A DNA stretch of 5,166 bases. Origin: a virus. Taxonomy: Duplodnaviria; Heunggongvirae; Uroviricota; Caudoviricetes. The notes beneath the pieces were generated by a model that saw only the letters and a program-made list of their open reading frames with translations, did no database searches and was not told the origin of the DNA. Of this stretch, positions 1-4,953 are shown in pieces (positions within the stretch are counted from its first letter, which is position 1; every line of letters starts with the position of its first letter). The translations under genes were made by a program, and so were the position numbers. The DNA lies in IMG/VR virus record IMGVR_UViG_2690316115_000017; one strand, 5' to 3'.

Positions 1-519
1 GGCAGGCACCGTCACCGCCTCCGTGATCCCGCAGTTCCGGTCCGGCGTGATGCGGTAGAACACCTCGCCGTCATCCGCCACCAGAGGTTCAACCCGGCTC
101 CAGTCCAGAATACGCAGTTCTTTGATCTGCCCCCGGGAGTTACGGATTTTCAGCACCACCGTATTGCCGTGACGCAGTTTGGCGTTCAGCCACAGTTCAA
201 AAAACTGGATACGATTCTGCTGTGCATTGGGACGACGACAGAGACGGGCAATATCCCCCTGCCGTTTTTCACGGCGGATCCCCTGTGTATCGGTCTGCAT
301 CAGGCGCAGTCGCATTTTGGCGATATCCTGGGATATCAGCGAAATGCAAGAAAACACCGCATGAAAGGAGAGGACACTTTCCGGATCGGCTTTCACGCCC
401 TGCTGCCAGGCACCGGCAAAAGGCTCAGCCACCGCCTGAAACAGGCTGGTCCAGCCCACCTCTTTTACATCACGTCCTGATTTCTGGTTTTTTCGGGTTC
501 GCCGCAAAAGGTTCCACAT
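1..519 (-). CDS. Phage portal protein (HK97-family-like), partial: N-terminal ~173 codons only, gene continues past the left edge of the window
   Basis: Not in the supplied ORF track because it has no stop in the window. My manual minus-strand translation in the frame of plus codons 1-3, 4-6, ... is open from the ATG at 517-519 to position 1, with an in-frame stop just upstream at 535-537. It gives MWNLLRRTRKNQKSGRDVKEVGWTSLFQAVAEPFAGAWQQGVKADPESVLSFHAVFSCISLISQDIAKMRLRLMQTDTQGIRREKRQGDIARLCRRPNAQQNRIQFFELWLNAKLRHGNTVVLKIRNSRGQIKELRILDWSRVEPLVADDGEVFYRITPDRNCGITEAVTVPA. This matches my memory of the conserved N-terminal region of HK97-type portals (pattern PE.AL..SAV.AC...I....A.LPL.LY.R, then GN.Y..I.R...G.I.EL..L.P..V....DG.V.Y). 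A GGAG lies 8 nt upstream of the ATG. The start is uncertain: an in-frame GTG at 457-459 is an alternative. Confidence 0.75.
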   Translation of the reverse strand, partial: MWNLLRRTRKNQKSGRDVKEVGWTSLFQAVAEPFAGAWQQGVKADPESVLSFHAVFSCISLISQDIAKMRLRLMQTDTQGIRREKRQGDIARLCRRPNAQQNRIQFFELWLNAKLRHGNTVVLKIRNSRGQIKELRILDWSRVEPLVADDGEVFYRITPDRNCGITEAVTVPA

Positions 520-686
520 TCGCCATGCTCCGCATCACGTTTCTTTTTCTGACCTGCCGGACGTCGCACTGTGATGTACTCCGCCTTCCCCAGGCGAACC
601 AGCACCTCCGCACACGGCTGTGCCACATCACGGATATCCCCGGCCCGGGCATCATGCGTGCCCTGCAGATATCGGATCTTTGCCAT
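465..686 (-). CDS. Hypothetical 73-aa protein between the capsid and portal genes; function unknown, may be spurious
   Basis: ORF-track entry with an ATG at 684-686, located 44 nt downstream of the capsid stop. It has only a weak SD (AGG about 2 nt before the ATG) and overlaps the putative portal start by about 55 nt in another frame. I recognise no family motif. The position, a small ORF just before portal, is where lambda-like phages encode gpW-type head-completion proteins, but I see no sequence similarity. Confidence 0.3.
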   Translation of the reverse strand: MAKIRYLQGTHDARAGDIRDVAQPCAEVLVRLGKAEYITVRRPAGQKKKRDAEHGECGTFCGEPEKTRNQDVM

Positions 687-730: not shown

Positions 731-2668
731 TCAGCCGCCGGACGCACTGCCGTAGTTCACTCCGGTGATCACCGCCACCGCCGCAGTACGGCGACGACGC
801 CAGTTGATCCAGCGCTCCGCACGGATGGCCACGCTGCCTGTCTGGAACATGGAAACCAGCTCCACCGGGGACGGCGTAGTACTGTCGCCGGTCGGTTCAG
901 ACTGCATCTCCAGTGACGCTTCACGGGACATATCCACCGCCACACCGCCGTCATCAGCCAGATAAATATCCGGCGCATTCACCAGCACCAGCTGGTCACC
1001 CACGTACTGGGAGACAATCACCGGCAGGCCCTGGAAGGTGCCGCCAAGCAGGGTCATGTCCGGGTATTCCTTCTGACCCAGCGCATTTTTACGCATGGAC
1101 AGCGCCAGGGCATTCGTGCTGGACATCAGCCAGACCGCACCGGTGGGCTGCAGGTTTGCTGCCACAAACTGTCCAAACGCAGCCTCTGCATCCGCATCCG
1201 GGTTACCGGTTGATGCCGTGCCCTTCACATCATGGGTGATGGACGCCGGGGAGACATCTGCCACTGCGGCTTTTTTCGGGTCCACAAAGTCTGTATCCAG
1301 ACGCGCCACCACCGCTTCCGCCAGCGCATTACGGACCAGTGCATCAGCAGCCGGACTGGAAAAACGGATCAATTCTTCCGTCAGTACCGCAATGGCCGAC
1401 ACTTTCGCATGACTGAAGGTGATGGATTCAAAATCAAACTTCGTCAGGGGTTTTGCCTTACCCTCACCCACCCAGCCGGCAGCACCGCCGGACACCTGGG
1501 CGTGCACACGGATATTGAACGGCACCTGACGAAGTGCAGGGATCCCGCCCTGACCAAATCGCCCGATAATGGTCTGCGGACGCAGGTAATCAATAAAGTC
1601 CTGTGCGTATTCCTGATATTCAGACAGGCTGCCTGCCCACTGCGGATCCGTGGTGGTCCCCGCGCCCACTGCCGATTTCAGGACATGATGCAGACGGCTG
1701 TCATCCGGATACTGACGACGGGCCACTTCCAGGGCTTCAGATCGGACGCCTTTAGCCGCAGCCAGCGATTTGGCAAAGCGGGCGAAGCCAATCCCCTTAT
1801 CCAGTTTCTGCTCCACACGGATCACCGGCGCAGAAGCCACCGCGGCCACATTCCCGTTACCGGCCTGTTTCACCGGCTGCGCCGTGGCGGCCTTACCGGC
1901 TTCCAGTTCACGCAGGCGCTTCAGGTGCGCATCCACCTGACGGATTTCCGCTGCGGTGTTGTCGTAATGCTCTTCCTCCTCCACATCCAGCGTGCGCCCT
2001 TCCTCTGCGGCTTTGGTCATGACCTCCTCAAGGGAGGCTGCCAGCGCTGCACGCTTGTTTTCAAAACTTTTAATCTGTTCGCCAGTATTCATTATGGTCT
2101 TTTCCTTATGAAAAACGGTTGTTGACTGTGCCGCAGCGCCGGCAGAAGATGCGATTTTCACCACCGGTTTCCGGTTGCCGGACGCGGCAGAAAACGGGCG
2201 GTCGTAAGATTTAATGGTCCGGATGGTGCATTCCGCATTCGCGGGCACGGTGACGGCAGACACCTCCATCAGTTCCCAGCGCAGAAAATGCAGTCCGCCT
2301 CCGTCCAGAAAGGTGTATTCATGGGGACGGAAGCCCACGGACAGCCCCCTGACCAGCCCGGTCTTAATGGCCGCCCAGACCTCATCCAGCCTGGCAGCCA
2401 GTTGCGACGGCATATCCGGTACGGGCTTCACCAGTGTTGCCGTGATTTCCAGCCCTTCCCTGACCCGACGCACCGTACACTGGCCTACAGGGCGGGAATG
2501 GTCATGCTGCCAGAGAAACGGGATCGTACTGCCAAACTCCGCCCCCTCCGGCTCCAGGATGTCACCATCCCGATCCGGAGAAGGCGTTGACGCAATCCCG
2601 GTGATCACCCGTTCATCCTCACTGAAGGATTTCACCGTCAGCAGGGAACAGGCCCGTTTAAGAGTCAC
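731..2668 (-). CDS. Prohead protease - scaffold/delta region - major capsid protein fusion polyprotein (HK97-type head maturation protease plus HK97-fold MCP), 645 aa
   Basis: ORF-track 645-aa ORF. The N-terminal ~160 aa carries HK97 prohead-protease (peptidase S78/U35) hallmarks: ITGIASTPSPDRDGDILEPEGAEF, IPFLWQHDHSRPVG, GLVRGLSVGFRP, LHFLRWELMEVSAVTVPAN. Residues ~195-290 are E/A/K/R-rich and coiled-coil-like (EQIKSFENKRAALAASLEEVMTKAAEEGRTLDVEEEEHYDNTAAEIRQVDAHLKRLRELEAGKA), typical of a scaffold or delta domain. The C-terminal ~350 aa resembles HK97-fold major capsid proteins. Start is GTG at 2666-2668, preceded by a perfect SD AGGAGG (plus 2674-2679) with a 5-nt spacer; no in-frame ATG is available upstream. 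Confidence 0.88.
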   Translation of the reverse strand: MTLKRACSLLTVKSFSEDERVITGIASTPSPDRDGDILEPEGAEFGSTIPFLWQHDHSRPVGQCTVRRVREGLEITATLVKPVPDMPSQLAARLDEVWAAIKTGLVRGLSVGFRPHEYTFLDGGGLHFLRWELMEVSAVTVPANAECTIRTIKSYDRPFSAASGNRKPVVKIASSAGAAAQSTTVFHKEKTIMNTGEQIKSFENKRAALAASLEEVMTKAAEEGRTLDVEEEEHYDNTAAEIRQVDAHLKRLRELEAGKAATAQPVKQAGNGNVAAVASAPVIRVEQKLDKGIGFARFAKSLAAAKGVRSEALEVARRQYPDDSRLHHVLKSAVGAGTTTDPQWAGSLSEYQEYAQDFIDYLRPQTIIGRFGQGGIPALRQVPFNIRVHAQVSGGAAGWVGEGKAKPLTKFDFESITFSHAKVSAIAVLTEELIRFSSPAADALVRNALAEAVVARLDTDFVDPKKAAVADVSPASITHDVKGTASTGNPDADAEAAFGQFVAANLQPTGAVWLMSSTNALALSMRKNALGQKEYPDMTLLGGTFQGLPVIVSQYVGDQLVLVNAPDIYLADDGGVAVDMSREASLEMQSEPTGDSTTPSPVELVSMFQTGSVAIRAERWINWRRRRTAAVAVITGVNYGSASGG

Positions 2669-2680
2669 ATCAGCCTCCTG

Positions 2681-2731: not shown

Positions 2732-4393
2732 TTATATGAAAAAAACCTCATACGCTTTCTTTTTCGGTTCCGGATTCAGGGACATCAGGGACACCGCATT
2801 GAAGAGCGCCATCAGAGGGTCAATTTTTCCCCGTCCGCTGGCCTGTTTGGTGATAAGAATGGCGTTACCTTTAGGCTCCACCCGGGCATTGCCAACGCAC
2901 CAGGCCATCAGTGGCTGACCACCATGCACCAGCACTCCCTCAGCCAGTTTGCGCTCGGTGGTTTTGATGGCCCCGCCCAGCTTCCAGCCCTGGCTTATCC
3001 CCACCACACTCTCATCGGGGATCCCGGCTTCCGCCAGTGAATCCAGAATCTGCCCCACACCTGACGGGTCAATACCGATATGATCCAGTAACTCAGCCTC
3101 ATGAATACGACGCACATACTCCGCCACTTCCGCCGTGTCATCCCCGACCCGACGGACAATCGTCATGTCTCCACAGGCCACAAAATCCTGAAACCGGGAT
3201 GCCTCACTCTTCCGTCTGACCACCGCGGTTTCATGCACCCAGGCATGGCCCCAGCCCAGCCATTCGCGGGTTTCCCTGTCACGGCCAGTCACGTACATTC
3301 CCAGCAGATCATCCAGGCCCCCGCCGTCAATCCCCACCGTCACCACATCAGCGCGCTGCAGGATATCGTCCAGGCTGACGCGCCTGCCCTGCTGCTCCCA
3401 GAAATCCGCGCCCGCCCAGCGGTCAGAACGCAGGGCAAGACCGATTTCCACATTGGCGTGTTTTGACATGAAACCGCGGAAAGTCTCTTCCCCGGCTTCC
3501 CGGGCTTTACGATACTCCCGGTACAGAAAGGCCTCATCCACCGAATAACCGAGATTCGGGTTAACCATGGCGAGGTTTTCCATCAGCAGGTGAGCCCCGC
3601 TTTCCACCATTTCAGGAGGATGCTCAAATATCACCGGCAGAAAGTGCGGATCATGAATTTTGCCGTCACGGACATCCCGGGCGTACTGCAGTTTCTGCCT
3701 GAACACCCCGGCAGGCGGTTCATTCGACTGGGTGGTTGTGTACACCACAAACCCTTCCGGACGTGAAGCCAGCCCGCCGATGGCTTCACGTAGCATGTCT
3801 TCCGCTTTGTACTGCTTGCCAAACAGCCACAGTTCATCAATCAGTGTCCCCACGGACTTGATACCGGACACCGTATTCGGATCGGCTGCCACCACCTTCA
3901 GGGTGGTGTCCGTCACCCGATGGGTGATGGTCCGGATATGTGTCTGCACCTGACAGAGGTCATCCAGATCATCGTCCCGTCGTACCATATCCCTGGCAGG
4001 GTTGAAGGCGTTAGCCGCCACCTCCACGGTCGGGGCCAGAATGGTGTAGCCCGCCGCCTGCCGCCAGTTCAGTAACAGCGCCGTCATCATGATCCCCGCG
4101 GCCAGCGTGGACTTCGAGTTTTTCTTGGGGATAAGGATAAAAACTTCCTTGATATGGCGTACACCGGTCTGCGCATCATAGGAGCCAAACAGGGCCGCCA
4201 CCAGGTCAAACACCCACGGTGCACAGGACTCCCCGAACGTCGGGCTACCAGGTGCATCCACAATCCGCAGTTGTTTAAAAATCGCCAGGGCATGTGCGGC
4301 CTCGTCCGGATAAATCGGATCCGGAATAATCGACAGCCCCTTTTTCAGGCGCTCTGCCCAGTCCGGACATGCCGTGCTCCATACAGGTATCAT
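2732..4393 (-). CDS. terL: Phage terminase large subunit (Terminase_1-type ATPase/nuclease), 553 aa
   Basis: ORF-track 553-aa ORF. It has an N-terminal P-loop-like motif ILIPKKNSKSTLAAG, as in the Walker A region of terminase large subunits, and its overall length and architecture fit TerL. The ATG at 4391-4393 overlaps the terS stop (ATGA), consistent with translational coupling. SD GAGGA lies at plus 4400-4404 with a 6-nt spacer. Confidence 0.88.
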   Translation of the reverse strand: MIPVWSTACPDWAERLKKGLSIIPDPIYPDEAAHALAIFKQLRIVDAPGSPTFGESCAPWVFDLVAALFGSYDAQTGVRHIKEVFILIPKKNSKSTLAAGIMMTALLLNWRQAAGYTILAPTVEVAANAFNPARDMVRRDDDLDDLCQVQTHIRTITHRVTDTTLKVVAADPNTVSGIKSVGTLIDELWLFGKQYKAEDMLREAIGGLASRPEGFVVYTTTQSNEPPAGVFRQKLQYARDVRDGKIHDPHFLPVIFEHPPEMVESGAHLLMENLAMVNPNLGYSVDEAFLYREYRKAREAGEETFRGFMSKHANVEIGLALRSDRWAGADFWEQQGRRVSLDDILQRADVVTVGIDGGGLDDLLGMYVTGRDRETREWLGWGHAWVHETAVVRRKSEASRFQDFVACGDMTIVRRVGDDTAEVAEYVRRIHEAELLDHIGIDPSGVGQILDSLAEAGIPDESVVGISQGWKLGGAIKTTERKLAEGVLVHGGQPLMAWCVGNARVEPKGNAILITKQASGRGKIDPLMALFNAVSLMSLNPEPKKKAYEVFFI

Positions 4394-4953
4394 CCGCTTT
4401 CCTCATTCTGGTTATTCACCACCAGTCGGGGAGGTGGTGGCACCGCAAAACGGTTAGCCGCTTTTTTCGCGGCATCACCTTTTGCCGATTTTTTACCGGC
4501 ATCGCCTTTTTTATGGTGTGTGAACTGCGCCAGTCGCCAGGCCGCATCCAGTGCCAGTTTCGGGTCAATTATCAGGTTTTCCACCAGGATCTGCCCCATA
4601 GCTTTCACCGGATCGGGAAGACCATCCTCCATATATTCAATACCATGAGATATCACCGCGGGCGGAGGCATCTCCGGATTGTTTTCGTCCGGCTGTGGTA
4701 TTGCAGCCACCTCACGGCGACGGGGTTTATCCTCCTGCTCTGATTTTTTCTGCCGGTAAACAGGAACCTCATCCACCTCCACCGTTTCGCACTGTTTACG
4801 GGCTATAAACGCGAGCACCTCCGGATCTTTTGCCAGCTGCGAGCCTTTAACCCTGGCGGTCTTCGCCGAATAACCAGCGGCAATGGCTGACGCTGTTTTG
4901 TTTTTCCCGGACATGAGCGCCAGCGCAAATTTTCGTTTTTGCGTTGTCAGCAC
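4390..4953 (-). CDS. terS: Phage terminase small subunit (Terminase_2-type N-terminal HTH DNA-binding domain), 187 aa
   Basis: The N-terminus LTTQKRKFALALMSGKNKTASAIAAGYSAKTARVKGSQLAKDPEVLAFIA matches the characteristic Terminase_2 motif (LT.KQ..F...Y...GN.T.AAI.AGYS.KTA...G..L). It lies immediately upstream of terL and overlaps it. Start is GTG at 4951-4953 with SD GGAGG (plus 4959-4963) and a 5-nt spacer; an in-frame stop lies upstream at 5017-5019 with no ATG in between. The C-terminal part is a Lys/Ala/Gly/Pro-rich low-complexity tail. Confidence 0.82.
   Translation of the reverse strand: MLTTQKRKFALALMSGKNKTASAIAAGYSAKTARVKGSQLAKDPEVLAFIARKQCETVEVDEVPVYRQKKSEQEDKPRRREVAAIPQPDENNPEMPPPAVISHGIEYMEDGLPDPVKAMGQILVENLIIDPKLALDAAWRLAQFTHHKKGDAGKKSAKGDAAKKAANRFAVPPPPRLVVNNQNEESG

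Follow-up and report, generated by a model that had tools for sequence, protein, structure and literature searches.

The fused protease and capsid gene and its AT-rich island

The stretch of DNA considered here (hereafter the window, i.e., all 5,166 nucleotides of the tailed-phage sequence from IMG/VR record IMGVR_UViG_2690316115_000017) is the head module of a lambdoid (Stx-type) Escherichia coli prophage, and one of its genes is a single open reading frame (ORF) of 645 codons that joins a prohead protease to a major capsid protein (MCP). At the boundary between the protease part and the capsid part of this gene lies an AT-rich island with a Shine-Dalgarno (SD) sequence and an in-frame ATG (codon 193, M193), and the present analysis is concerned with the possibility that these signals constitute a second, nested translation start within the fusion gene (Table 1).

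The two ends of the fusion are readily assigned by Pfam, in agreement with the domain calls of an initial annotation that had been made from the letters of the window: Peptidase_S78 (PF04586) covers residues 48-152 (34.7 bits versus a gathering score of 21) and Phage_capsid (PF05065) residues 386-635 (54.6 bits versus a gathering score of 24.2), and the capsid part additionally gives a weak sequence match to the major capsid protein 9d9w in the PDB. The ORF begins with an HK97-type prohead protease, continues through a linker and a presumed delta-like scaffold domain, and ends in an HK97-fold MCP, and protease and MCP domains share one uninterrupted ORF in the window as well as in 152 relatives. 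Residues H55 (in LWQHD) and S110 (in GLSxGF) are invariant among relatives of 34-78% identity (alignments A1 and A2) and, by analogy with HK97 gp4, may form the catalytic pair. The linker, in contrast, is variable in sequence and length, with indels and low conservation at residues 165-192, and its 3' end carries the putative internal ribosome-binding site. Structure prediction with AlphaFold2 was run on a shallow alignment and gave a poor overall model (mean predicted local distance difference test score, pLDDT, of 43), which was used for domain boundaries only; within it, the two helices of a hairpin (residues 195-222 and 229-261) are predicted at a pLDDT of about 77. M193 is placed by this prediction exactly at the edge between the disordered linker (141-193) and the confident helical hairpin (195-261).

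The initial annotation had pointed to an AT-rich patch at this boundary, at 2052-2118, containing AAGGA and an in-frame ATG (2090-2092, residue 193) in a frame that stays open, all of which is indeed present on the minus strand (..VFHKEKTIMNTGEQIKSFENK..), with a spacing of 10 nt between AAGGA and ATG. The patch as originally delimited (2052-2118) has a GC content of 0.34, and the minimum over 67 nt in the entire 5.2-kb window is reached at 2123..2057 (0.313), which is lower than in the true intergenic regions (0.358 and 0.403) and lower than both the next-poorest segment of the gene (0.448) and the gene mean (0.596). Of the TAA triplets in the patch, the two that had been singled out (2108 and 2072) are indeed in a common alternative frame, and the other alternative frame contains a third (2094); such triplets are unremarkable in AT-rich sequence. 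What the window offers is an in-frame start codon at a domain boundary inside a long ORF, as in nested gene pairs of the lambda C/Nu3 type.

Table 1. Coordinates of the features in the window.
Feature	Position	Strand	Basis or remark
TerS	4953..4390	minus	
TerL	4393..2732	minus	
Full-length SD AGGAGG, 5 nt upstream of GTG	2679..2674	minus	ΔG -10.3 kcal/mol
Full-length fusion ORF, 645 aa, 69.1 kDa, GTG start	2668..731	minus	ORF list, Pfam
Protease domain, about residues 1-140	2668..2249	minus	Pfam; invariant columns; pLDDT 70-80
Linker, residues 141-192, predicted disordered	2248..2093	minus	pLDDT <50 over residues 141-193
AT-rich island, predicted unstructured mRNA around the internal start	2123..2057	minus	GC 0.313
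Internal SD TAAGGA, across Lys-Glu codons AAG-GAA	2108..2103	minus	ΔG -6.2 kcal/mol
Putative internal in-frame start ATG, M193	2092..2090	minus	codon 193
Nested 3'-coterminal ORF, scaffold (delta-like) and MCP, 453 aa, 48.2 kDa	2092..731	minus	predicted major product
Delta-like helical hairpin, residues 193-261 (helices 195-222, 229-261), presumed scaffold	2092..1886	minus	AlphaFold2
Small ORF, 73 aa, no Pfam match	686..465	minus	between capsid and portal genes
Portal gene start	519 (1-519 in window)	minus	

Selection on the internal start signals

A protein search returned thousands of homologs, with fused forms at 73-78% identity across the Enterobacterales. For comparisons at the DNA level, 28 genome loci were combined with 160 loci that came from two scans, one of IMG/VR and one of metagenomes, seeded with distant members; an earlier IMG/VR scan contributed 80 more, most of which are close relatives. 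Where identity to the window protein was measured, among the genome and IMG/VR loci, it lies between about 32% and 99%. After dropping identical junctions, 152 fused and 37 split genes (i.e., 189 junctions compared) as well as one unclear case remained, and the footprint statistics given below refer to 87 fused representatives, clustered at 85% identity or less, and to 30 split representatives.

In the 37 split relatives, the start codon of the MCP gene aligns with M193, as seen for Burkholderia phage vB_FUBS1 (annotated MCP start at 2557), two Snodgrassella loci (L027 and L030), and an Acidovorax locus (L026). In the latter, a single in-frame stop is the sole separator of the protease and MCP genes, and the MCP starts with GTG. 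These alignments identify the patch as the homolog of the boundary between protease and MCP genes in split relatives, and with respect to this history the proposal of the initial annotation that the patch is a fossil intergenic region with a lost stop codon holds true. A neighbor-joining tree of the MCP part requires at least ten changes between the fused and the split state. The window itself is located inside a pure-fused clade of 64 tips, and the fused state is old, because MCP divergence in this clade reaches 56% at the protein level. The homology to a gene boundary would be in line with a dead relic, i.e., a former intergenic junction that lost its stop and whose SD and ATG are decaying leftovers, with the full-length protein as the only product. 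The repeated interconversions, owing to which some fusions may be young, and the merely moderate SD of the window would likewise fit such a scenario.

The codon found at the M193 position speaks a different language. It is ATG in 138 and GTG in 14 of the 152 non-identical fused relatives, with no other codon occurring at this site, which corresponds to the N-terminal edge of the scaffold helix. Wherever valine replaces methionine (13 fused representatives from 10 independent clusters), it is encoded by GTG, although GTG accounts for just 37% of the valine codons in fused genes (p ~5e-5 for an all-GTG start site); Leu, Ile, Thr, or any residue besides Met and Val were not encountered at this position in the fused relatives compared. 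In an alignment of 16 fused relatives from Enterobacterales, neither M193 nor N194 varies, and M193 marks the point from which the sequence is conserved again.

Upstream of this codon, purines make up 91-99% of the nucleotides at positions -12 to -8 in the 87 fused representatives, with a G peak at -9, as compared to about 50% in the flanks, and the 30 split representatives display a matching purine footprint at the same place. SD strength is also alike, with a median ΔG of -5.6 and a mean of -6.5 kcal/mol in the fused genes versus -5.4 and -5.2 kcal/mol at true MCP starts. This pattern could conceivably reflect requirements of the protein, for example, if the K/E/G-rich stretch and the methionine were needed as charged linker, cleavage site, or helix cap, and if the AT-richness simply followed from Lys, Asn, and Ile codons. 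Indeed, disorder is predicted for the linker and many of its residues are K, T, S, G, or N, a peptide motif further upstream, AGA(T/S)A, is widely conserved, and other methionines such as M607 are invariant for structural reasons. However, the purine block at codons -4/-3 corresponds to residues of differing chemistry (K, E, G, R, N, and D, including opposite charges) whose common feature is purine-only codons, and its GG core is found in differing codon phases (AAG-GAA in the window, AAA-GGA in most relatives). Glycine codons within the block are moreover biased towards GGR, which is five times commoner there than in the rest of the genes and runs against genome usage (Fisher p = 3.5e-9), just as valine at the start site appears solely as GTG. 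Given that the nucleotide footprint also exists in split genes, where this stretch lies outside the MCP, a purely protein-level constraint is improbable, and the constraint at the SD is, judging from these codon patterns, one that acts on the nucleotides rather than on the protein.

The surroundings of the internal start are, in addition, predicted to be exceptionally accessible. The probability that positions -18 to +12 are unpaired is 10^-4.7 in fused genes versus 10^-8.4 at other in-frame positions (roughly 5000-fold more open), and 10^-3.6 versus a background of 10^-8.1 in split genes; local GC content is likewise reduced in both (0.44 at the junction versus 0.60 for the gene in fused, 0.46 versus 0.61 in split relatives). 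In the window, the same segment belongs to the top 4.3% of in-frame positions within the gene by predicted accessibility. Neither the SD nor the ATG varies in 40 E. coli alleles, although non-synonymous changes have turned the spacer between them from ACCATA into TCAGCA. Synonymous-site constraint just downstream of the internal ATG is modest (9th percentile). Comparison with the relatives thus reveals an upstream ribosome-binding site by its purine block, a ΔG like that of true MCP starts, and a predicted open mRNA, and the alignments show start codon, SD, and local openness to be under selection.

These observations make it unlikely that the signals are remnants of a lost gene boundary. They have been retained in all 152 fused genes, including the pure-fused clade with its 56% protein divergence, whereas the linker around them diverges freely with indels, GTG is the only substitute accepted for ATG, and the site is on a par with live MCP starts in both SD strength and openness. 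Over such deep divergence, a neutral remnant would have eroded, and since the signals are under selection, the part of the fossil proposal that implied a dead relic is unsupported.

Another explanation for the AT-rich island would be that it represents a different type of element, which might act as an internal promoter, mark a mosaic recombination junction, fold into a structured RNA, or liberate the protease by frameshifting. Searches of the patch for a promoter-like site and for an Rfam family were negative. SNP (single-nucleotide polymorphism) density over the patch is average in the E. coli alleles (10 sites observed, 9.6 expected), and therefore no mosaic breakpoint is located there. In favor of a structured element, the GC-rich flanks of the patch (2145-2130 and 2053-2038) can pair around it (minimum free energy, MFE, of -35.8 kcal/mol, z = -2.3), giving rise to a stem of 14-16 bp whose loop of about 75 nt contains the SD and ATG and which is foldable in most enterobacterial relatives. 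However, this flank stem lacks covariation (0.067 versus 0.066 in shuffled controls) and its upstream arm is conserved also where the partner is lost, so that a long-range stem presenting the start in a loop was rejected as evidence. As to frameshifting, 22 of the 87 fused representatives have in-frame slippery heptamers in their linkers, a 21-fold excess over background, yet the linker of the window contains none, and a programmed -1 frameshift was accordingly rejected for the window. Altogether, a different element at this site appears very improbable.

The region also holds features that deserve mention in their own right. The strongest synonymous constraint of the gene, i.e., its lowest synonymous diversity, is found in a 15-nt block upstream of the internal start, GCTGGCGCTACAGCA, which encodes AGATA. 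Located some 35-50 nt before the internal ATG, the block is near-invariant in its nucleotides in 33 enterobacterial relatives (L004-L020, L079-L111, and others) and is kept even where its possible pairing partner has been lost; its counterpart in the window, at 2131-2145, reads GCCGGCGCTGCGGCA. The slippery heptamers of the relatives (A_AAA_AAA, G_GGA_AAA, and T_TTA_AAA in L007, L014, L015, L019, L113, L149, and others) reside in the linker between -63 and -6 nt from the internal start and are usually followed by a stop in the -1 frame within 1-20 codons, in a few cases farther on. They could release free protease by frameshifting or could merely reflect linker composition. In a set of GC-rich distant relatives (L143, L173, L249, L251, L258, L262, and L263), the predicted MFE structure of the segment from -66 to -5 nt pairs the SD (GGGAGGG or GAGGAGGG) with an upstream CCNGCCGGCGCTTCGGC, and according to these folding models such lineages could couple initiation at the internal site to translation of the upstream protease part.

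A putative nested capsid cistron and its precedents

The conserved initiation signals argue that M193 is probably a live nested start, which would yield a 48-kDa scaffold-MCP protein beside the 69-kDa protease fusion; the second reading offered by the initial annotation, an in-frame start for a 453-residue product, is thereby strongly favored by the invariable ATG or GTG, the position-specific SD footprint, and the predicted open mRNA, all three of which match the MCP starts of split genes and have been kept over deep divergence. Under this model, the fusion gene would comprise two nested, 3'-coterminal cistrons. Ribosomes starting at GTG 2668 behind the strong SD would produce protease, linker, scaffold, and MCP as a minor species, and ribosomes that bind independently at TAAGGA would start at the internal ATG and produce the scaffold-MCP protein in the same frame and with the same C-terminus. 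The AT-rich island would keep the internal ribosome-binding site unstructured and thus serve as a landing pad in an otherwise GC-rich and translated message. Judging from HK97 biology, the short product would be the bulk building block of the procapsid shell, into which a few full-length subunits would co-assemble with their protease hanging on the inward-pointing scaffold domain. The enzyme would therefore be delivered inside without a separate targeting signal and, after assembly, would presumably trim linker and scaffold off all subunits, as in HK97. The synthesis of both proteins, their ratio, their co-assembly, and the final cleavage are what we infer from the conserved signals and these parallels. 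Plausibly, such a nested start would also relieve the stoichiometry problem of the fusion that the initial annotation had raised. Attenuation of the protease at its own start, i.e., a systematically weak full-length start (GTG or TTG) in fused genes that would cut protease dosage, was considered and rejected, as ATG is found at 70 of 75 such starts, with SDs similar to those in split genes.

Several well-known systems are instructive for comparison. Gene C of phage lambda is a long ORF with an N-terminal head protease, and an internal in-frame start gives rise to the shorter, 3'-coterminal assembly protein Nu3; a minor protease-bearing species and a major scaffold species thereby originate from one DNA stretch. 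The gene in the window resembles C/Nu3 in its proposed nested in-frame arrangement of protease and assembly protein. However, the lambda C protease is of the ClpP/S49 type and has no sequence relationship to the Peptidase_S78 of the window, and Nu3 is a free scaffold, with the capsid protein E encoded by a separate gene, whereas the nested product in the window would be the capsid protein itself with its scaffold domain. With its S78 protease and an MCP in the nested product, the gene would therefore work like C/Nu3 but is not a member of that family by descent. With HK97 gp4/gp5 it shares Peptidase_S78, Phage_capsid, and the order protease then MCP, and its presumed scaffold would likewise be an N-terminal domain of the MCP; delta domains of this kind are helical, about 100 aa long, and removed by the protease. 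HK97 uses two separate genes and its protease is targeted non-covalently, while the window has no stop between the genes and the protease is covalently joined to the capsid protein; despite this fusion, the gene appears to keep the MCP's own start, which is homologous to the MCP start of split relatives. Further 3'-coterminal in-frame pairs, with protease plus scaffold as the long and scaffold as the short product, are herpesvirus UL26/UL26.5, UL80/UL80.5 of cytomegalovirus, and I/Z of phage Mu. In these pairs, the short scaffold is abundant and the long product enters the procapsid through the shared C-terminal part. Here, the differences are that the short herpesvirus product is made from its own promoter and transcript, as opposed to an internal SD on the same mRNA, and that the part shared in the herpesvirus and Mu pairs is scaffold only, with a separate MCP, while in the window it would include the MCP. 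The apparent novelty would be a nested start yielding the capsid protein itself; protease-capsid fusions as such and nested protease/scaffold pairs are known.

Single-gene fusions of protease, (scaffold), and capsid protein have been published for actinophage clusters EE, AN, AM/AU, and EL, for Rhodococcus phage RRH1, and for Pseudomonas MD8-like phages, where they were called an 'unusual feature' and treated as one product (PMC7302621, PMC5513430, PMC8508860, bioRxiv 10.1101/2020.01.10.891226). In a full-text literature search of limited extent, no report or data on an internal start in these genes were found. They appear to have arisen independently of the proteobacterial family of the window, since tblastn with the window protein retrieved no actinophage fusion and tblastn with RRH1 Orf7 no proteobacterial fusion, and since MD8 gp5 combines a ClpP protease with Mu-like MCP domains, unlike the S78 and Phage_capsid domains of the window.

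In a side test, nine actinophage fusion genes and MD8 were inspected for similar signals. Six of the nine have an SD and ATG right after the protease domain, namely RRH1 (L273; M274), GMA5 (L276; M265), Rahul (L277; M307), Decurro (L281; M160), Adaia (L282; M162), and Penoan (L283; M160); in RRH1, for example, the signal at codon 274 reads CCGGAAGGAACCCCAGCC-ATG. Like signals are located farther along in BlueFeather (M204), after a Pro/Ala-rich linker. SallySpecial and EricDab have no obvious equivalent start and instead carry an SD and ATG before the protease domain, after an N-terminal membrane segment, and MD8 gp5 is ambiguous, with no clear equivalent start. As far as such sequence signals go, the actinophage genes provide a hint that the nested-start rule is general.

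A number of points weigh against a live nested start and should be borne in mind. First, the internal SD is only moderate in the window: 12% of the codon positions in the gene equal or beat its -6.2 kcal/mol, an SD at least as strong precedes 7 of the 50 other in-frame ATG, GTG, and TTG codons, and its GG (at -13/-12) is slightly farther out than the family mode. As this single-sequence SD is ordinary, the weight lies on the comparison with relatives, and SD statistics of the window by itself were rejected as evidence for lack of significance. Second, the full-length start has the stronger SD (-10.3 versus -6.2 kcal/mol), so that dominance of the short product is not predicted from sequence, and elongating ribosomes from the upstream start cross the internal site and could occlude it. 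Third, a rough volume estimate suggests that the procapsid has room for one protease per subunit, and the stoichiometry argument is therefore not compelling by itself. Fourth, the sequences are phylogenetically related and counts overstate the number of independent events, which clustering was used to mitigate. The absence of an obvious equivalent start in two of nine actinophage fusions and the ambiguous MD8 gp5 add to these concerns, as does the fact that the existence of the 453-residue product is deduced by comparing sequences. A separate candidate for an internal start, M217 (ATG at 2018-2020, minus strand), is preceded by GAGGAGG at a distance of 2 nt (ΔG -8.1 kcal/mol) in a GC-rich context and was rejected, as this spacing is too short and the methionine is not conserved in distant relatives.

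If the nested start at M193 is nevertheless live, the actual precursor of the major virion protein in these phages is missing from genome annotation, which shows only the full-length product of the fusion gene. It would explain how many capsid subunits but few proteases can be obtained from fusions that have been found puzzling in phage-genomics papers and would constitute a covalent solution for bringing the protease into the procapsid. Function would then survive repeated switching between gene fusion and fission (at least ten changes here), as the downstream cistron always retains a start of its own. Beyond this family, it is conceivable, if somewhat short of an even chance, that nested initiation is a general, unannotated rule for protease-scaffold-capsid fusions in tailed phages of several phyla, with the ratio of products set by translation, which would be what makes the fusion workable. 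Further layers may exist in some lineages, namely a hairpin that sequesters the SD and thereby ties the internal start to upstream translation, or a -1 frameshift in the linker that frees the protease. These considerations bear on annotation rules, on expression constructs for capsid or nanocage production, and on the reading of capsid-sensing defence triggers, all the more so as the gene is widespread and, through Stx phages, medically adjacent.

Prophage setting of the gene

All genes of the window are carried by the minus strand, in the order TerS, TerL, protease-capsid fusion, small ORF, and portal. The head module occurs with 94-99% identity in 1255 of 5426 complete E. coli genomes (23%), and carriers of the fusion gene include the Stx1, Stx2a, and Stx2c prophages of O157:H7, where the module is located downstream of stx2c and the lysis genes in a lambdoid prophage. 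In E. coli genomes, the gene is always annotated as a single 645-aa 'major capsid protein' (PGAP: one coding sequence, 'phage major capsid protein'), while phage records name it 'major head protein/prohead protease'. One apparent split homolog, from E. coli TUM10008 (L001, 1726-2256), was rejected: a deletion has cut its fusion gene off at nt 530, 21 nt short of the AT-rich patch, and the remnant continues into a fragment of a tail-protein gene.

The 5' end of the fusion gene is remarkable for its variability, since its first 60 nt (2609-2668) contain 28 variable sites in the 40 E. coli alleles compared to about 9 per 60 nt elsewhere, which suggests that a mosaic or recombination boundary lies there rather than at the AT-rich patch. 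TerL (stop at 2732) and the fusion gene (start at 2668) are 63 nt apart, and this gap harbors a terminator-like hairpin on the minus strand (2690-2707; GAACCGC-TGCG-GCGGTTT followed by a T run), a position that lies inside the expected late operon. On the other side of the fusion gene, the small ORF of 73 residues is conserved and overlaps the portal start by 55 nt in the window. Burkholderia phage vB_FUBS1 likewise has a small ORF in the same slot between the capsid and portal genes, and the portal coding sequence of O157:H7 spans 2.6 kb and is described as frameshifted in its annotation (loci compared: L002, 13983-16734, and L003, 3944-5451).

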